A DNA stretch of 45,370 nt. Origin: an uncultured bacterium (lineage in GTDB: Bacteria > Patescibacteriota > Minisyncoccia > Phycocordibacterales > JAACPR01). Positions 11,231-17,002 of the stretch are shown here, one piece after another. Below the pieces are notes generated by a model. The model saw nothing but the letters and a program-made list of their open reading frames with translations, did no database searches and was not told the DNA's origin. Location of the stretch: NCBI GenBank assembly GCA_937858275.1, contig CALLZK010000021.1, positions 1 through 45,370 on the forward strand. The letters are read 5' to 3'. Both the position numbers and the translations under genes were made by a program. Within the stretch, counting starts at the first letter, position 1, and each line of letters begins with the position of its first letter.

Positions 11231-13654
11231 TTAAATTTGTGTTTTGTTTTTATATTTTTCTGTAACTATATACCAAGAAATATTATCTTTTTCACCTTTT
11301 TTTGGAAACTTAAAATATCGAGTAACAATATTTCCATAAGATAACATTTTTTGAAAATCAAAATCGTTCTGTGTTTGAGCGGAATAAATTCTTATTCCAT
11401 TTTCATATTCATAAAAATCATTTTCTGATTTATTGTTTGATTTATCTACGGAATCACCTGAACCTGCTTCTAATTTTGATCGTAAAAATCTTTCAACAAT
11501 TTTTTCTTGTGACCAATCACCTTCTGATTCTTTTTTTGTGACAAAGTCAAAATTCGTATCATCTCTTTCAATATTCAAAACTTCTATTTCAGCGACCGGT
11601 TTCCATTCTGTTGCAACAAAACCTCTTTCAATATAATTTGCACTAATTCCGACATGTGGATTACATTCGGCGATAATTTTTTTATCTTTCGCCATCAAAT
11701 CCAAGTCGCTCAACATCATAGCTTCGCCCAATCCAGATCCGTGGAATTGTCTATCAACATTAAAAGAAGCAAAATGAATTGTTTTTTCATTAACAGTGTC
11801 TATTCTATAAAATCCGGTTATATCGTCTTTGTATCGCAAAATTGTAAATTCTGAATCTGCATATTCCAGCGATTTTTCGAATGAATCAAGTAATATTTTG
11901 GTCAATTCTGGATATTTATCGTAATTTTCTTTATACATTTGACGCATTGTGTCGATGTCTTGTGGAGAGATTTTTTCTGGATTTATATGTCCGGTTAATT
12001 CAAAATTTTTAACATCGGAAACATTAATACTCTCACCTTTTGATTTAATATTTTTCAATGCTGATGAAAGCAAAATCATGTCTGCTTTGATCCTCTGCAA
12101 ATCTGCCAAAACTTCATCAAGTGATAATTCCAAACCATTTTCTTTTGCTTTTTTATGAGCATCAATAAAAGTTATCAAAATATCTTTGGCTTGTGACATA
12201 ACCCAAGATCTAATACTTTCTAATTCAACCTTATCAGTAATTTGATTATTTAATTCGGCATTGATGAAATTTTCTATATTATATGACTGATCGACAATAT
12301 CTGAATACTTTTTAAACAAAACTTTTGCAGAATCTGGATAATTTTTAGCAAAATCAAAAATTACATCTCCATCTATATCAAAAAAATCAACAGACAAAAA
12401 ACATCTAACACCCGTTGTTCCAAATTTTTTTACAAAATTCAATATTTCATCTTTATTTTTTTGGGAAAGTAAAACTCCAAAAAGAACCATTTGCTCTTCC
12501 CATTTAATGTCTCCCAAACTTAATCCCGCTTCCTTCATCATTGGTCTAAAAACATTCATCTGATATGACTGATCGTTTAATGCTACAAGCCTAGAAGCAT
12601 AATCAGAGTCACTTTCATTCTTCTTTCTTTGACAAAAAACATCTGGTTTATATGGAATAATTCTACCATCCATAAAATCCGCACCGAAATTTGCTTTCCT
12701 AACAACATCTGCTTGGCTAAATCCTTGTAAAAGAAGCGGTTGATATAGGTTTTCAATCTCCTCTTTTGTGGCCAAGCTAAAATATGCAATGAGCCTCAAA
12801 TCACCACCGTGTACTGATTCGAAAATACCAACTGTGTTTTTATCTAAGCTGGCCATTTTTTGATTTTCATTCCTCTCAATAGATGTTCCAACAAAATTAT
12901 TTCTACCAATATAATAGTTCGCATACCCATTTACTCCACTAAAAGAGATATATGGTTTATCACCCAAAGGTTTTACTTTATATATAAAATCTTCTTCTTT
13001 TATATTTGTACCTGGATCAAAATCTGTTTCATTAAAAACACCTGCATTAATTAATTTTTTTGCATATTTCCTTATAAAAGAATTTGGTTTATGAGAGAAT
13101 TTTTCACCCTTTATTGATGGTAAATATTGATAATTAGACTCCTTGAGATATCTTGCGGATAATTTTCTAATCGAACCATCTTTATCATTTACTAATAAAT
13201 TTCCGGTTTTCTGATCTCTATAGACCCCGAGATCATTGAGCATTTTGGCTAAAAATAATTCCACAATAGAAAAAGCAGACCCATCTTCTAATATTATATC
13301 CTCTGTGCTCCAACGGATAACACCAATAAGTTCTCTAAGCTCGTAGTGTCCAACAGACCAAATCCCAGATAATGCCTCCCTTTCATTTCTAGGAAAAGTT
13401 AACAAAGGGGCTTCTTTTCCATTAATACAGACCCTCTCTGAAGCCAAGTCGATTAAGAGATTAAGTAGACCCATCCCTTTATGATTCGTGGAGTTTCGAT
13501 TTTCTTTTTTTAGTGCTTCTATATTAAAATACAATTTTCCTTCTTTTTCTGATATAAGACCGATTTTTTTCGCCACAGAAAAAAAATCCTCGTTTTTTCT
13601 CTCAGAAAAGCCAACTGGTTTTTCATCACTCTCGATGGAAATATATTCTTTCAT
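11231..13654 (-). CDS. Large hypothetical protein with a C-terminal GNAT acetyltransferase-like domain
   Basis: 809-aa ORF (ATG at 13654, TTG at 13660). FASFNVDRQFHGSGLGEAMM matches GNAT motif A (V..x.x.G.G.G); followed by SANYIERGF. Confidence 0.7.
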   Translation of the reverse strand: MKEYISIESDEKPVGFSERKNEDFFSVAKKIGLISEKEGKLYFNIEALKKENRNSTNHKGMGLLNLLIDLASERVCINGKEAPLLTFPRNEREALSGIWSVGHYELRELIGVIRWSTEDIILEDGSAFSIVELFLAKMLNDLGVYRDQKTGNLLVNDKDGSIRKLSARYLKESNYQYLPSIKGEKFSHKPNSFIRKYAKKLINAGVFNETDFDPGTNIKEEDFIYKVKPLGDKPYISFSGVNGYANYYIGRNNFVGTSIERNENQKMASLDKNTVGIFESVHGGDLRLIAYFSLATKEEIENLYQPLLLQGFSQADVVRKANFGADFMDGRIIPYKPDVFCQRKKNESDSDYASRLVALNDQSYQMNVFRPMMKEAGLSLGDIKWEEQMVLFGVLLSQKNKDEILNFVKKFGTTGVRCFLSVDFFDIDGDVIFDFAKNYPDSAKVLFKKYSDIVDQSYNIENFINAELNNQITDKVELESIRSWVMSQAKDILITFIDAHKKAKENGLELSLDEVLADLQRIKADMILLSSALKNIKSKGESINVSDVKNFELTGHINPEKISPQDIDTMRQMYKENYDKYPELTKILLDSFEKSLEYADSEFTILRYKDDITGFYRIDTVNEKTIHFASFNVDRQFHGSGLGEAMMLSDLDLMAKDKKIIAECNPHVGISANYIERGFVATEWKPVAEIEVLNIERDDTNFDFVTKKESEGDWSQEKIVERFLRSKLEAGSGDSVDKSNNKSENDFYEYENGIRIYSAQTQNDFDFQKMLSYGNIVTRYFKFPKKGEKDNISWYIVTEKYKNKTQI

Positions 13655-13690
13655 ATTCAAAATAATAACATAAAAATTAAACAGCTCACA

Positions 13691-13813
13691 TTCACCTCAA
13701 TTACACAGACATCAATAAAAATATTAAGAAAGAGATGTTTAGAGGAGAGAGTTTTAAAAACACTCACATCCATTCCCTAAATATCTTTCTGATGTCTGTA
13801 TAATTAGGGTGAA
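13691..13813 (-). ncRNA. Candidate rod-shaped structured RNA or processing stem
   Basis: 24-bp imperfect terminal stem (13691-13714 / 13790-13813) where 2 of 3 mismatches become G-U pairs on the minus strand. Nested AAAGATATT/AATATTTTT and GGATGT/ACATCT stems; pyrimidine-rich segment left unpaired. Confidence 0.5.
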
Positions 13814-13912
13814 AATTAACTTTTTCGCCATTTTTGGCTCATCAGTCAGGACACACATCCTGAGAAAGTGGTGCGCTTTTAAACCATTGGTGCGCACCAA
13901 ACCAAAACAAAT

Positions 13913-14338
13913 TCAAAACATTTCCGTCATCTTCCTCCTTTCTAAGTCCCTCTCCCTCATTTGCAAGACGGAAGTCTTGCAACTTTTTATTTCTATTAGC
14001 AACCTCGCGGTTGCTTCTTTGATTTCCTCAATGACTTTTGGGGAAATCAAAATTTTTTTACCGTCTTCTCCGAAGACGGTTATGTGGTTTTGGCCACCCC
14101 AGGGGTGGCAAGTGAACAACACTTCTCCGGATGGAATCCGAAAAGAAATACTTCGTAGATACCTGTCATAGGTATCTACCTTATATCCCTTTTTCTCCAG
14201 AAGTTTTTCTATAATCACCTGATAGTACTGTGGATTCCCCCAGGCACTCTCTATGTTAATGATGTTATCATAATCTAATAACATCATTGACAACGCGTCT
14301 AGCGGGTTCAGCCATTTGATTAAAAATTTTGTTATCAC
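13913..14338 (-). CDS. Hypothetical protein (141 aa, no recognised family)
   Basis: GTG start preceded by a strong SD-like AGGGGAG; globular-looking composition. Confidence 0.7.
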   Translation of the reverse strand: MITKFLIKWLNPLDALSMMLLDYDNIINIESAWGNPQYYQVIIEKLLEKKGYKVDTYDRYLRSISFRIPSGEVLFTCHPWGGQNHITVFGEDGKKILISPKVIEEIKEATARLLIEIKSCKTSVLQMRERDLERRKMTEMF

Positions 14339-14624
14339 TTCTCTCCCCTAATCTGGTGTATTGTTTTGGCACACCTGTTTGAAGCCCACTATCTATCAAA
14401 CCACCACACCATGTGATGATTTGAATAAAAAGGAGAAATTTACGTATTCTCCAGTTGGCTTGTGCCACGGCCGACACCACATCGGCAACCACCACGCAAT
14501 TGAGTCTCAAGATAAGTATACTTATCCTTCCCTCATCTAGCTTTTGCGCAAAGCAACTTTGCATGTCTCACGACATTCACAAGCTGTCCCAGTTTCCGCT
14601 GGTTCGGTGATGCCTTTGGACGAC

Positions 14625-15158
14625 CTACTGGGCCGTCCGTCGACTCACAAGGTGTTTGTGCACCTCGGCCGCAACCGCGCTGTCATACAGCGGGTTATGG
14701 GTGGCACCGAAATCCGGCACCACGAGCCCCCACTTGTCGACATACTTGTCGACAGAGGTGGGATCCTCTCCGGCCTGCGCGAGTTCCCCCGCAACATCCA
14801 GAAGAGGATACGGACCGTCCCAGTCCCCGATGCACCCTTGCGAGTGCATGTCCCGAAGGAGATTACTCTCCACGGGAGTTCCCATGTGGACGACTATCTC
14901 CACACCTAACTTGTTCGCCAAGTAGAACTTGGCGAAATCGATAAGCAGAGACTCGTATGTCTCATGGGAGACGGGGAGACCACTGAGTGTGGGCAACACA
15001 TTCGTGCGAACCCACTCGTCAGTCACTGCTGTATCGGGCAAGCGACCGACAAACCGTCCAACTTCACGACCGGACTCGTCATAGACGAGTGCACCGATTG
15101 CGAAAGCACGGCCCCATAGACCATTGGTCTCGGCGTCAAAAGAAAAGATTTTTTTCAT
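14625..15158 (-). CDS. DEDDh (DnaQ-like) 3'-5' exonuclease, Rv2179c/RNase AS-like
   Basis: ExoI FDAETNG, VTDEWVRTNVLPTL and ExoIII THNPLYD. GC-rich (39/60 in 14761-14820). SD GAGG 10 nt upstream. Confidence 0.8.
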   Translation of the reverse strand: MKKIFSFDAETNGLWGRAFAIGALVYDESGREVGRFVGRLPDTAVTDEWVRTNVLPTLSGLPVSHETYESLLIDFAKFYLANKLGVEIVVHMGTPVESNLLRDMHSQGCIGDWDGPYPLLDVAGELAQAGEDPTSVDKYVDKWGLVVPDFGATHNPLYDSAVAAEVHKHLVSRRTAQ

Positions 15159-16029
15159 CTTTTCTTTTCCTCTGCATACTATTTTCCTAGTCTCCTAGGT
15201 TTTTATGCAGAGGTCCTTATGGTGCTTGACTGGGCACACCAACCCAGAGTGTTTTTGTTATAGGAAACACTCAACCATCTCAACGAACTAACAACCGAAG
15301 TGTTGTGGGCTCGATAGAAAGGAGATTTTCTTGAAATCCCCTACACCTTTTCAGGTGTGATTTAAACAGAATGAATTTATTTTTATATTACTTGTAAAAA
15401 TGCCGTCCAAATCACACCTGTCCATCTTTGTTTTGTCGAAAACCAGTTTTTAACCCGTCTCGTTTTACTACCACTAGCAAAAGATGAACTTGTGTGGATT
15501 TAATATTCAATTATCAACGAACTCCTCACCCTCTCCTCTCAATCTCATCGTGACTCTCTCCTCTTTTGGTCTGGCAAAGGGCACCTTTCCAGAAAAAATC
15601 ACACGACTTTGAGGTAGCAAGGATATTTCTAGACACAAAGAGTGGTTAATTCCTTATGTCGAGCCGATATCATTACTATTAGATACGGTTGATGTAATTT
15701 GCCTTATAGACATAGTTCCAATTCATGGCAGATGTTTGAGGCCTGGCACTTCACAGAACATTTACATCTTCAAACATAATAGGTTTAAATTTGGCTTCCA
15801 ATATTCTCTCCTCTTTGGGAAAAGTATTTCCGCAGAAAATTCACTCTCTCCTCTTTCTACACTTGCCGGCTGTAGGCACCGTCTAGATTAGGCCCGAATA
15901 TCTGTGGTCCAATCAAGATCAGACAGTGAACTTCAAATTTAACTCTATTACCTTTTAACGAACTTTTTGATGATTTGATTTTCAGACGATCGCCTCTTTA
16001 CGACCGGCATCTTTTCTTTTCATCATTCT
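15159..16029 (-). ncRNA. Candidate long structured 5' leader or ncRNA (about 870 nt, no ORF >=60 aa)
   Basis: No ORF in the track; many perfect stems (15169-15213, 15248-15271, 15352-15420, 15571-15592 and others); repeated AGAGGAGAG and AGTTCGTT motifs; lies between a consensus promoter and the exonuclease. Confidence 0.5.
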
Positions 16030-16035
16030 GAGTAT

Positions 16036-16064
16036 ATAATAGCAAAGTTTTGACAAAATGTCAA
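16036..16064 (-). promoter_or_regulatory. Near-consensus sigma70 promoter driving the island leftward
   Basis: Minus strand TTGACA (16064-16059), 17 nt, then TATTAT (16041-16036), with an extended -10 TG. Confidence 0.8.
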
Positions 16065-16217
16065 TACTATTGTGACAAATATATTAAAAATGTCAGAAAA
16101 ACCATAACTATCAACAAAAAAACCTTTATTTATATGTGGATAAGTGTCACAGAGTTGTGACAAGATGTGCTATATTTATTATATTGAATGTGTTTAGACA
16201 AAATTTATTAGACAAAT
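16050..16217. promoter_or_regulatory. Cluster of TGACA/TGTCA operator-like sites between the island promoter and the TrmB gene
   Basis: TTGACA-AAA-TGTCAA (16050-16064), TGTCAC-N6-GTGACA (16145-16162), TTAGACAAA twice, and TGTGGATAA at 16135-16143. Confidence 0.55.
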
Positions 16218-16243
16218 TTACCAAAAAAATAATCACAACAAAT

Positions 16244-17002
16244 ATGCAACAAGAAATATTAAATTCCGCAGGACTTACCACAGAACAATCAAAGATATAC
16301 ACCACCCTATTAGAAAACGGCTCAATGCAAGCCAGAAAAATAGTCCTAAATACAGGTATAAAACGGGGATTGGTCTATAAAGCACTTGATCAATTAATAG
16401 AAATGGGTCTAGTCACCAAACACGATTCTTTAGGAAAAATAAGTGTCTTCAATCCAAATCATCCAAATTTAATTTTAAAAATTATTGAAGAAAAAAAGAA
16501 AAACCTAGAAACAATAGAGGATTCCGTAAAATCAGTTGTTGGCCAAATGACTTCTAGTTTTAATCTTTTGACCGGAAAACCAAATGTTCGATTTTATGAA
16601 GGTGAAAAAGGTTTAAAGGAAGTGCTGGACGATTCTCTGTATTCAAAATCAGAAGTTTTATCATATGCAGACCTGGAATCAATTGAGAAATTTATTCCAG
16701 AAATTAATAAAAAACATGTAGCAGATAGAAAAAAACATGGGGTAATAAAAAAGGCAATGGTTCTAGATTCTGAATTTAATAGAAAAGTAATTCAAAATTA
16801 TGACAAAGAAGTGACTAATGTTCGTTTTATGGATGTATCTGAATCAAAACCATTTCAATCACTTATGAATATTTACGATAACAAAGTTTCGTATTTGACC
16901 TTGGACACCGACAGAATGATTGGTGTAATTATAGAAGATGAACATATTGCCGAAATGCAAAGATATATTTGGGAATTTAGTTGGAAAAATGCAAAAGATT
17001 AA
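16244..17002 (+). CDS. TrmB-family transcriptional regulator (N-terminal wHTH)
   Basis: Start MQQEILNSAGLTTEQSKIYTTLLENG..TGIKRGLVYKALDQLIEMGLV; PNVRFYEGEKG; C-terminal IYDNKVSYL..GVIIEDEHIA. Confidence 0.9.
   Translation: MQQEILNSAGLTTEQSKIYTTLLENGSMQARKIVLNTGIKRGLVYKALDQLIEMGLVTKHDSLGKISVFNPNHPNLILKIIEEKKKNLETIEDSVKSVVGQMTSSFNLLTGKPNVRFYEGEKGLKEVLDDSLYSKSEVLSYADLESIEKFIPEINKKHVADRKKHGVIKKAMVLDSEFNRKVIQNYDKEVTNVRFMDVSESKPFQSLMNIYDNKVSYLTLDTDRMIGVIIEDEHIAEMQRYIWEFSWKNAKD

Follow-up and report, generated by a model that had tools for sequence, protein, structure and literature searches.

An RNA-rich locus around a DEDDh-type exonuclease gene

The window, that is, the whole stretch of 45,370 nucleotides that we analysed, belongs to an uncultured member of the Patescibacteria and carries on its minus strand a gene (14625..15158) for a 177-aa DEDDh-type 3'-5' exonuclease-like protein, which lies in a 2.35-kb G+C-rich island full of structured RNAs. 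The gene has a G+C content of 55-60%, compared to roughly 28-31% for the genome, and this G+C richness recurs in every host. We found 651 homologues of the protein, mostly in Patescibacteria, as well as twelve distant ones in a viral collection. Curated models did not recognize it (no Pfam match at E up to 0.1 and no NCBIfam or PADLOC match at E up to 1), and a sequence-profile search against the PDB returned nothing at E up to 1. Two observations support the exonuclease label given by the initial annotation, namely the predicted fold and the conservation without exception, across 25 sequences, of D8, E10, D103, H154 and D159, the residues of Exo I (D-x-E), Exo II (D) and Exo III (H-x4-D). The AF2 model had a pLDDT of 92.9, and the best Foldseek matches were RNase T, ExoX, Pol III epsilon and RNase AS (probability 1.0, TM 0.6-0.7). 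With these motifs and a confidently predicted RNase T/ExoX/epsilon-like fold, the protein is assigned to the DEDDh 3'-5' exonuclease superfamily, which has an RNase H-like alpha/beta fold. Compared with the solved structures of RNase T, ExoX, Pol III epsilon, RNase AS/Rv2179c and ERI/3'hExo, it is alike in the invariant motif residues and the predicted fold, while sequence identity is just 10-19%. Among the neighbours of the homologues, no protein family was recurrent except TrmB. Conserved antisense "ORFs" were rejected as artefacts of G+C-rich codons.

The best promoter-like site in 13500-16300 (11/12 matches) is a sigma-70-like TTGACA-17-TATTAT sequence with a TG extension on the minus strand (16036..16064), and no promoter-like sites were found on the minus strand between 16036 and the exonuclease gene. 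A palindrome, TTGACATTTTGTCAA (16064-16050), contains the -35 box and is retained in the related locus L001, and the promoter faces a divergent gene on the plus strand (16136/16244-17002) whose product is a TrmB-family regulator by Pfam match. The promoter may be operator-controlled. The leader is ~870 nt long and carries at its 3' end two hairpins, H1 and H2, which are described below. It opens with a conserved structured non-coding RNA of ~500 nt (15504..16028, minus strand), hereafter the 5' module, which holds three copies of AGAGGAGAGAG (about 15854-15843, 15814-15805 and 15564-15553), has UUGAnAAUUGAAUA as its 3' end and contains no ORF of at least 60 aa. The 5' module was detected by blastn and nhmmer in about 15 distinct loci. 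Its strand was that of the exonuclease gene in each of them, and with the exception of L029 it lay upstream of this gene; in one of its helices, 11 out of 14 pairs showed compensatory changes. Closer to the gene lie structured pre-ORF pieces (15221..15325, minus strand), made up of UCUCCUUUCUAU (15325-15314) and the hairpin H0, GGUGUGCCCAGUCAAGCACC (15240-15221), which recur before the next ORF at 14436-14425 and 14375-14355 (direct repeats D9 and D17). Hairpins of the H0 type numbered 11 on the exonuclease strand versus 0 on the other strand in 341 kb, and most of them sit 10-70 nt before an ORF start.

Right after the exonuclease stop codon follows a conserved non-coding block (14440..14620, minus strand; …AACCAGCGGnAAnnCUGGGA…CUAGAUGAGGGAnGGAUAnGU..ACnUAUnnUGAGACU…), which could be aligned with L001, L006, L012, L092 and L094 and has no Rfam match. 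The next position is one of variable cargo, filled here by a 141-aa ORF (13913..14338, minus strand) for which family searches (Pfam, NCBIfam and PADLOC) gave no match and which is unrelated to the 146-aa ORF in the same position in L001. Further along the same strand are a helper hairpin (13898-13870; GGUGCGCACC…GCGCACC), common to L001, L019 and L026, and an element (13871-13817) with the core CUGAUGA…GAAA, three helices and the cleavage triplet UUC, of the N-U-H type, that, on these sequence features, is a type III hammerhead predicted to be self-cleaving. A rule-based scan assigned it stems I, II and III of 8, 4 and 5 bp, with helix III open, and Rfam Hammerhead_3 scored it at 37.0 bits (E 1.1e-5), which is under the gathering score of 48.5, with all core positions aligned. 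The same scan found 20 such hammerheads in 73 loci, every one on the exonuclease strand. In the relatives they flank the exonuclease gene, 11 of them just past the stop codon and 5 upstream, and Rfam matched those of L052 (50.2 bits) and L038 (43.5 bits) and also L054 and L019. We do not claim activity for a hammerhead-like sequence at the equivalent place in L001, in which the first pair of stem II is mismatched and which had no Rfam match at E up to 0.05.

Just upstream of a gene for an 809-aa protein with a GNAT domain (13660-11231, minus strand) lies a long imperfect hairpin with 60-nt arms (13679..13825, minus strand; inverted repeats I1, I15 and I16). Its apical loop, GUGAGUGUUUUUAAAACUCUCUCCUCUAAA, holds ACUCUCUCCUCU (13752-13741), which is perfectly complementary to the AGAGGAGAGAGU repeats in the 5' module. 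The motif upstream together with the anti-motif downstream on the same strand was present in 9 loci (8 distinct), and the loop of the long hairpin is conserved in about 12 loci. The viral collection contained nine exact matches to the 18-mer of this 3' loop, eight of which were unrelated sequence without the hairpin. An integron attC reading of the long hairpin was rejected by eye, as its apical loop is conserved and no R'/R'' boxes are apparent. Rfam was searched with the window at gathering threshold, with 13500-16400 at E up to 10 and with 28 related loci, and gave no match to H1/H2, the 5' module, the 3' hairpin or the kissing-hairpin leader; the matches obtained comprised only tRNAs, hammerheads, a single SAM riboswitch and miRNA-like hairpins attributed to chance. 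The sequencing runs that hold the locus are DNA only, and no RNA-seq was found for the window or L001. One freshwater metatranscriptome contained diverged relatives of L038 only, so that members of the family do occur in an RNA library, without ends.

Two abutting hairpins over the exonuclease start

The minus-strand sequence confirmed the two hairpins that the initial annotation had reported to abut at the exonuclease start: H1 (15213-15169) is followed by H2 (15168-15138) with zero nucleotides between them, and the MFE fold is exactly this structure. H1 consists of an outer stem of 10 bp, in which CCTCTGCATA (15213-15204) pairs with TATGCAGAGG (15178-15169; as RNA, CCUCUGCAUA/UAUGCAGAGG), and an inner stem of 5 bp, CCTAG (15199-15195) with CTAGG (15190-15186), which has A-rich internal loops (AAAUA / GAAUAA) next to it and a GAGA loop of the GNRA type at its tip. 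H2 is a 12-bp stem of AAAAGAAAAGAT (15168-15157) and ATCTTTTCTTTT (15149-15138) closed by the loop GAAAAAA (as RNA, AAAAGAAAAGAU/AUCUUUUCUUUU; also listed as inverted repeat I17). Its 5' arm terminates with the A and U of the start codon, its loop is made of the G of ATG and codons 2-3, and its 3' arm corresponds to codons 4-7 (I F S F). The earlier statement that H2 buries the AT of the ATG is therefore correct, whereas the pairing it gave with codons 3-7 is in fact with codons 4-7. The purine tract upstream of the start codon is likewise occluded by the predicted structure. Neither hairpin resembles an intrinsic terminator: the scan returned no minus-strand terminator at this place, and neither AAAAGAAAAG, which follows H1, nor GACGCC, which follows H2, is a U-tract on this strand. 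A 17-nt direct repeat, GAKGAAAAGAAAAGAUG, is also found at the transcript 5' end (16024-16008; D4, I18); displacement of the H2 5' arm by this repeat was dropped as a general mechanism, as it is not conserved in L001, L092, L094, L098, L099 and L012.

The MFE of the region -56..+21 is -33.3 kcal/mol, compared to a mean of -9.5 (sd 2.5) for 1000 dinucleotide shuffles, none of which was as low (z = -9.4). Folded separately, H1 and H2 have energies of -22.4 and -10.9 kcal/mol. Within the whole 929-nt leader, the predicted pair probabilities are 0.97-1.0 for H1 and 0.8-1.0 for H2, the first two nucleotides of the AUG have a probability of being unpaired of ≤0.01, and the ensemble, in a prediction that takes no ligand, contains no alternative fold of appreciable probability. 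These energy predictions leave out proteins and tertiary contacts with the large leader, and H2 is A-U rich, such that the S1 ribosomal protein or helicases may open it more readily than the energy model implies.

The exonuclease start stands apart from other starts in the window. Among 39 ATG-ORFs of at least 120 aa (the exonuclease gene and 38 others), it is the extreme outlier: its energy for -56..+21 is -33.3 kcal/mol, where the others average -6.0 (sd 3.7), and for -20..+21 it is -10.9, where they average -1.1 (sd 1.3, minimum -5.0). The genome is essentially SD-less, and the other starts of the window are nearly structure-free. The initial annotation had read the GAGG of this leader as an SD that is buried in the H1 stem. 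GAGG is indeed located within the H1 3' arm, but a role as SD is doubtful, given that an SD-like tetramer precedes only 2 of the 39 ORFs, of which the exonuclease gene is one.

Covariation of H1 and H2 among homologous leaders

Conservation in homologues, which the initial annotation had proposed as a check, was found for both hairpins: H1 and H2 are retained with compensatory changes in 12 distinct homologous leaders. As MAFFT set the H1 arms in three different registers, we counted pairs in an N-padded structural alignment of the 12 leaders. In this alignment, 95.8% of the cells were paired, compared to 76.8% in shuffles and 43-52% in slid controls, a percentage that is inflated by the hand-building of the alignment around each sequence's own fold. 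Two-sided changes occurred in 16 out of 28 pairs, and in H1 they affected all 8 outer pairs and 4 out of the 5 inner pairs; the covariation score was 0.589 versus 0.215, and 0 out of 500 shuffles reached 0.589. RNAalifold run on the plain MAFFT alignment, which is not structure-fitted, also identified compensatory changes in 12/12 H1 pairs. In H2, covariation is seen for the pair that includes the wobble position of Ser codon 6 (UA 4×, AU 3×, GU 2×, CG 1× and UG 1×), with the UTR arm tracking the synonymous changes of this codon (TCT/A, TCA/U and TCG/C) and the switch to AGT. Indeed, in L018, L039 and L033, which carry AGT Ser codons, the same H2 architecture is rebuilt. The H1 internal-loop sequences and the GAGA/ACAC loops are better conserved than the stems. 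Given the compensatory substitutions in 12 distinct leaders, we consider the structure functional and not accidental. H1-H2 is thus a stable structure that is unique in the window and maintained in evolution.

In a permutation test of UTR/CDS complementarity, 8 out of 77 distinct starts reached p ≤0.01, compared to 0.8 expected. The test is weak for the window's own sequence (p = 0.22), since an A-rich leader can match U-rich codons in several registers, and the case for H2 is based on its folding energy, on covariation and on how this start compares with others in the genome. In a chimera test of 70 starts, the mean duplex energy was -10.1 for native UTR/CDS combinations and -10.1 for chimeras (p = 0.74), and many exonuclease homologues have an open start with a strong AGGAGA. 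Both observations indicate that start occlusion is limited to a subset of lineages and is not a requirement of the protein. The suggestion of the initial annotation that the start is sequestered in the manner of a toxic gene consequently finds no support, as the same gene's start is left open in other lineages.

A candidate translational lock and its alternatives

We consider it reasonably likely that H1-H2 is a conserved cis-acting translational lock that ends the long structured leader of the DEDDh exonuclease gene. As for its effect on translation and any route by which it might open, we infer the following. Transcription would most likely start from the promoter at 16064-16036, at a site predicted near 16029, and produce the ~870-nt leader. 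Starts in this genome usually lie behind A/U-rich, unstructured and SD-less leaders. At the exonuclease start, H2 pairs codons 4-7 with the purine tract and with the AU of the start codon, and the preceding 45 nt form H1, a rigid two-part stem stacked directly on H2. As a 30S subunit would find no single-stranded landing site on the folded RNA, the finished transcript would be very poorly translated. Opening -18..+12 by force is predicted to cost ~25 kcal/mol, which makes "off or very low by default" the natural thermodynamic reading. On these models, the exonuclease gene is probably translated rarely, and its product would be synthesized only in small amounts or under certain conditions. Three candidate routes to its translation are co-transcriptional initiation in the short interval before the H2 3' arm exits the polymerase, cleavage of the coaxial stack (~27 bp) by an endonuclease, and a change of partner by the pyrimidine 3' arm of H2, which is able to pair with the leader's purine repeats if G-U pairs are included. 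The initial interpretation is thus supported in part, namely for the structure with its stability and conservation, for the default-off reading and for the exonuclease label, and not for its thermometer, riboswitch, SD and toxic-gene parts.

Several alternatives have to be weighed against such a lock. The near-continuous H1-H2 duplex of ~27 bp could be a substrate for a double-strand-specific endonuclease (e.g., RNase III), or the end product of the cleavage of a polycistronic ribozyme transcript, in which case the leader would be activated by processing and the hairpins would mainly be a processing or stability signal; cleavage would then remove or remodel the lock and leave a translatable mRNA. 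A type III hammerhead on the same transcript in a locus rich in RNA-processing elements, the hammerheads that directly flank the exonuclease gene in relatives, the repetition of structured pre-ORF pieces before successive ORFs and the abutment of H1 and H2 without a spacer are all consistent with this idea. We nevertheless regard it as unlikely, as Rfam has no ribozyme family match in 15130-15330 and as a stability element need not pair the start codon, whose exact register the covariation follows. It is less likely still that the H1 loops and the GNRA cap form an operator to which a protein, for instance the exonuclease itself, binds and thereby stabilizes or opens the lock, as in ribosomal-protein leaders. 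The stronger conservation of loops than of stems would fit such an operator, and DEDDh relatives such as 3'hExo, whose structure is among the fold matches, recognize stem-loops. However, conserved loops could stem from tertiary contacts with the long leader, and Rfam searches gave no match to a known protein-binding RNA family.

The initial annotation had suggested a switch that senses a ligand or temperature, a reading to which we give little credence. In its favour, the start codon is occluded and H2, with one U-rich arm, looks by eye like a fourU-type pairing, but H1 is a perfect stem of -22 kcal/mol and the unpaired probability of GAGG, of the 5' arm and of the AU of the start codon was predicted to be ≤0.17 at every temperature from 10 to 65 C. 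Both hairpins are thus predicted to be closed from 10 to 65 C, which argues against an RNA thermometer, and a riboswitch is not supported by Rfam, which matched no riboswitch or thermometer in 13500-16400 at E up to 10, nor by the ensemble predicted in the absence of ligand, which offers no alternative conformer of appreciable probability. The least probable explanation in our judgement is incidental complementarity, whereby an A-rich SD-less leader happens to meet U-rich I-F-S-F codons next to a palindrome that arose by chance or serves the opposite strand, e.g., as a terminator. Shuffled A-rich leaders do pair fairly well with the U-rich arm, as reflected in the permutation result for H2 in the window, and the terminator scan flagged the inner hairpin on the plus strand. 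This explanation is largely refuted by the covariation, with compensatory changes in all three helices, and further opposed by the extreme position of this start among the ORFs of the window; besides, the plus strand has no gene that ends there, and on the minus strand neither hairpin is followed by a U-tract.

Beyond the lock itself, one may tentatively, and with considerable doubt, see H1-H2 as one component of a variable and RNA-rich Patescibacteria locus that has not been described before. As we propose it, such a locus would comprise a promoter with a candidate operator beside a TrmB-family gene, a structured RNA of ~500 nt in which AGAGGAGAGAG is repeated, and unrelated cargo ORFs, from one to several in number, that are each preceded by a separate structured leader and among which the G+C-rich exonuclease is the recurrent one. 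A hammerhead or another small motif in its place would follow, together with a long hairpin that exactly matches, through its loop, the complement of the 5' repeats. Long-range pairing between the 5' and 3' RNAs and ribozyme cleavage would, in this proposal, select the translated cargo, and the rearrangement would open the lock.

Patescibacteria are uncultured bacteria with reduced genomes, in which translation is mostly initiated without an SD, and to our knowledge almost nothing is known about the regulation of single genes in them. The exonuclease start provides a concrete and testable case, namely a putative RNA lock, backed by covariation, on the start of a gene whose exonuclease family is very widespread but lacks annotation. 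This family has its own base composition in every host and is repeatedly accompanied by ribozymes that are predicted to be self-cleaving. Why bacterial hammerheads cluster near certain genes has been a question since their discovery in bacteria, and if the lock and the RNA modules cooperate, the locus could help explain such clustering. Taken alone, the hairpins represent an ordinary mechanism, translational occlusion, in a new place.

In the work of Weinberg and colleagues from 2015, bacterial genes associated with hammerhead and twister ribozymes reportedly were the context that yielded the RAGATH motifs. Like those genes, members of the exonuclease family recurrently have type III hammerheads and other, unclassified structured RNAs next to them on the same strand; the leader motifs described here match no Rfam family, RAGATH families included. 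As in fourU and ROSE thermometers, a U-rich strand pairs with a purine-rich ribosome-binding region. Those thermometers are marginally stable and melt near 30-42 C, whereas the predicted occlusion of the exonuclease start lasts to 65 C, with H1 as a perfect stem of -22 kcal/mol. Leader hairpins that occlude a start and gate translation are known from the translational operators of RNA phages and from the folded mRNA leaders of type I toxins (hok and tisB). In common with these, a local stem at the exonuclease start holds the initiation codon and the upstream purine tract, the default state is (here by prediction) poorly translatable, and the stem has evolved by compensatory changes. The exonuclease locus differs from them in lacking an antisense RNA, a known repressor protein and a small ORF of the toxin type, in that the gene encodes a 177-aa enzyme with a nuclease fold, and in that two coaxially abutting helices end a structured leader of ~870 nt in an SD-less genome.

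Structure of the exonuclease start region

The start of the 177-aa exonuclease gene (14625-15158, minus strand) lies within two hairpins on the same strand, H1 (15213-15169) and H2 (15168-15138), which abut with a spacer of 0 nt, as proposed in the initial annotation. H1 comprises an outer stem, CCTCTGCATA (15213-15204) with TATGCAGAGG (15178-15169), and the previously noted inner CCTAG/CTAGG stem (15199-15195 with 15190-15186), which carries a GAGA cap. H2 pairs AAAAGAAAAGAT (15168-15157) with ATCTTTTCTTTT (15149-15138) around a GAAAAAA loop. The ATG (15158-15156) is the sole in-frame start preceding the catalytic residues D8/E10. The H2 5' arm ends with the A and T of this codon, which are therefore buried as claimed, while the 3' arm corresponds to codons 4-7 (ATC TTT TCT TTT) rather than to codons 3-7. 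For positions -56 to +21, RNAfold returned exactly the H1+H2 structure at -33.3 kcal/mol (H1, -22.4; H2, -10.9 kcal/mol), versus -9.5 ± 2.5 for 1000 dinucleotide shuffles, none of which was as low (z = -9.4). Every H1/H2 pair had a probability of 0.8-1.0 within the complete 929-nt leader.

We compared this region with the other starts among the 39 ATG-initiated ORFs of at least 120 aa within the window. The mean energy of the other 38 for the -56 to +21 segment was -6.0 kcal/mol (sd 3.7), and for the shorter -20 to +21 segment it was -1.1 kcal/mol (sd 1.3, minimum -5.0) versus -10.9 kcal/mol for the exonuclease gene. An SD-like tetramer (GGAG, GAGG or AGGA at -25 to -1) preceded two of the 39 ORFs, including the exonuclease gene; the other 37 had A/T-rich leaders without one, and no sign of SD pairing in this organism was found among the 39. 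Judging by these ORFs, the genome appears to be essentially SD-less, with ORF starts nearly free of structure. An open A/U-rich start is evidently needed for initiation here, the exonuclease gene being the one exception. Of the buried SD described initially, the burial stands, given that the GAGG sits within the H1 3' arm; that it acts as an SD is questionable, because the window's other leaders are A/T-rich and SD-less.

Conservation of the hairpins in related loci

Among approximately 100 loci gathered for comparison, 12 distinct leaders with differing stem sequences share a two-part H1 directly followed by an H2 with the start codon (the window's own, WIN, and those of the related loci L001, L006, L095, L036, L097, L092, L094, L096, L014, L099 and L016). 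A plain MAFFT alignment combined with RNAalifold recovered H1, with compensatory changes in 12 of 12 pairs. Because the arms fell into differing registers under MAFFT, pairs were counted on an N-padded structural alignment (A7). With the caveat that the fold of each individual sequence guided the construction of A7, 95.8% of its cells were paired, versus 76.8% in shuffles and 43-52% with slid partners, and 16 of 28 pairs showed changes on both sides. The covariation score was 0.589 versus 0.215, with 0 of 500 shuffles reaching 0.589, and covarying H1 pairs comprised 8/8 of the outer and 4/5 of the inner stem. In H2, the UTR partner tracks the third position of Ser codon 6 (TCT/A, TCA/U, TCG/C or U), and where this serine is encoded by AGT (L018, L039, L033) the UTR is rewritten to match. 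Within H1, conservation is higher in the internal loops (AAAUA / GAAUAA) and the GNRA-type cap than in the stems. The homologue comparison suggested in the initial annotation thus found both hairpins kept in 12 distinct leaders with compensatory changes and, by the criterion of covariation, the H1-H2 structure is functional.

The exonuclease and the RNA elements around its gene

The 177-aa product had no match in Pfam, NCBIfam or PADLOC. Its 651 homologues come mostly from Patescibacteria metagenomes, the best 120 sharing 64-99% identity. Its designation as an exonuclease is supported as far as fold and motifs go, because the DEDDh signature (D8, E10, D103, H154, D159) is invariant and the AlphaFold model (pLDDT 92.9) matches RNase T, ExoX, Pol III epsilon, RNase AS/Rv2179c, ERI and 3'hExo structures with TM values of 0.6-0.7. 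The coding sequence has 55-60% G+C in a host genome of roughly 28-31%. Over 58 loci it averages 56% (GC3 up to 86%) whatever the composition of the flanks (26-61%, r = 0.28). Long, seemingly conserved ORFs run antisense or out of frame to it (14544-14909, plus strand, in the window, with equivalents in 69 loci); we rejected these as overlapping genes and attribute them to its G+C-rich codon usage. No neighboring protein family recurred except for a TrmB-type regulator (8 loci).

The gene lies in a compositional island (approximately 13700-16050; 36-60% G+C versus roughly 28-31% for the genome), whose limits coincide with two RNA elements, a 5' module and a 3' long hairpin, with all RNA elements on one strand. 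The conserved non-coding 5' module of about 500 nt (16028-15504, minus strand) contains the AGAGGAGAGAG repeat three times and ends in the conserved sequence UUGAnAAUUGAAUA. Among the approximately 15 distinct loci that have the module, it consistently shares the strand of the exonuclease gene and, except in L029, precedes that gene by 50-3000 nt. Covariation was seen in one helix, and Rfam gave no match. The imperfect 3' hairpin (147 nt; 13825-13679, loop 13739-13765, minus strand) has a conserved apical loop, GUGAGUGnUUUnAAAAnCUCUCUCCUCUAAA, containing ACUCUCUCCUCU, the exact complement (11-12 nt) of the 5'-module repeats. In 9 loci (8 distinct), the motif upstream and the anti-motif downstream share a strand and bracket a variable cargo, comprising the exonuclease and a 141-aa ORF in the window, an 81-aa ORF, the exonuclease and an unrelated 146-aa ORF in L001, and the exonuclease alone in L098; the genes flanking the loci are orthologous. 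The two motifs resemble SD and anti-SD, although the genome is SD-less.

Two further elements on the exonuclease strand, UCUCCUUUCUAU and a hairpin of small size, GGUG(Y)(R)CC…CACC, are repeated ahead of ORFs. Copies of the hairpin lie at 15221-15240 and 14355-14375 (minus strand) and in L019, L026, L028, L071, L095 and L098. The exonuclease strand has 11 of these hairpins and the opposite strand has none; AGA usually follows, and most copies stand 10-70 nt ahead of where a different ORF begins. Directly after the exonuclease stop codon, a conserved non-coding block (14440-14620, minus strand), common to L001, L006, L012, L092 and L094, has hairpins including AACCAGCGGUAAUUCUGGGA and GGAUAnGU…ACnUAUC.

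After the 141-aa ORF lies a type III hammerhead with a complete core (13871-13817, minus strand; 37 bits, E 1e-5, below the Rfam gathering score), preceded on the 5' side by a conserved helper hairpin (13817-13898 together). A rule-based scan of 73 distinct loci found 20 type III hammerheads, several confirmed by Rfam, all on the exonuclease strand, 11 of them 35-200 nt after the exonuclease stop codon and 5 upstream (loci besides the window: L004, L019, L026, L038, L039, L047, L049, L052, L054, L059, L065, L069, L071, L077, L087, L088 and L090). In the hammerhead's place, upstream of the 3' long hairpin, another small motif, hairpin-CACUUUAUU-GAGC…GCUC-AUAGAG, is found in L092, L028, L054, L012, L006 and L098; it had no Rfam match and may be another processing element. 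Distant exonuclease homologues (38-63% identity) also occur on 12 IMG/VR contigs classed as viral (L100-L111), just two of which (L102, L103) had hammerhead-like matches.

Limits, opening and transcription of the proposed lock

A different group of leaders (L017, L027, L038, L049, L051, L056, L077, L084) has a strong AGGAGA and an open start. At about -85 to -20 from the ATG, two hairpins have loops able to kiss, CUAGC/GCUAG (UCUAGC / GCUAGA) or CCUAG/CUAGG, followed by A-rich sequence, AGGAGA and the unstructured start. The 6-bp loop-loop helix is 100% paired, with two covarying pairs, and the motif had no Rfam family match. Across 70 distinct starts, native UTR/CDS duplexes had no advantage in strength over chimeric duplexes (-10.1 vs -10.1, p = 0.74), and only 8 of 77 starts reached p <= 0.01 in a UTR/CDS permutation test, versus 0.8 expected. 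Judging from these leaders, the lock belongs to one set of lineages and is not something the protein requires; the argument that a toxic nuclease must be kept off is weakened accordingly, the eight loci with AGGAGA leaving the start of the same gene open. The sequencing runs holding the window are DNA only; one freshwater metatranscriptome contained diverged exonuclease-family members, including one with an L038-type leader, whose ends were not informative.

Like the SD and toxicity parts of the initial interpretation, the other types of control raised there are not supported. A thermometer is excluded because both hairpins are predicted to stay closed from 10 to 65 °C, and a riboswitch finds no support, as neither a riboswitch family match nor a competing alternative fold was obtained. 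The initial idea that the gene is off by default remains the best-supported reading: holding positions -18 to +12 single-stranded has a predicted cost of 25 kcal/mol, and we consider it fairly probable that the hairpins form a cis-acting lock blocking translation by default. Such a lock would keep exonuclease expression low or conditional. As one of three possible routes of opening, initiation might occur in a co-transcriptional window before the H2 3' arm emerges. Alternatively, the ~27-bp coaxial stack could be cleaved, or the pyrimidine arm of H2 could re-pair with purine repeats of the leader (13 pairs including G-U).

The best promoter-like site, TTGACA-17-TATTAT, lies at 16064-16036; none was found between it and the exonuclease gene, and the hairpins therefore end a leader of ~870 nt. 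A palindrome, TTGACATTTTGTCAA (16050-16064, minus strand; conserved in L001 as TTGACATTTAGTCAA), holds the -35 box of this promoter and faces a divergently oriented TrmB-family gene; WIN and L001 share 73% identity in the protein it encodes. This palindrome is a candidate operator for the TrmB-family regulator, which could plausibly control leader transcription. The purine tract and ATG of the exonuclease start (15156-15172) also form a 17-nt direct repeat (16/17 matches) with 16008-16024; this upstream copy is located at the predicted transcript 5' end and could replace the H2 5' arm, and the repeat is not conserved in six related loci. Translational occlusion as proposed here is a known kind of mechanism; a more novel lead is the surrounding variable locus with its wealth of ribozymes and other RNA elements.
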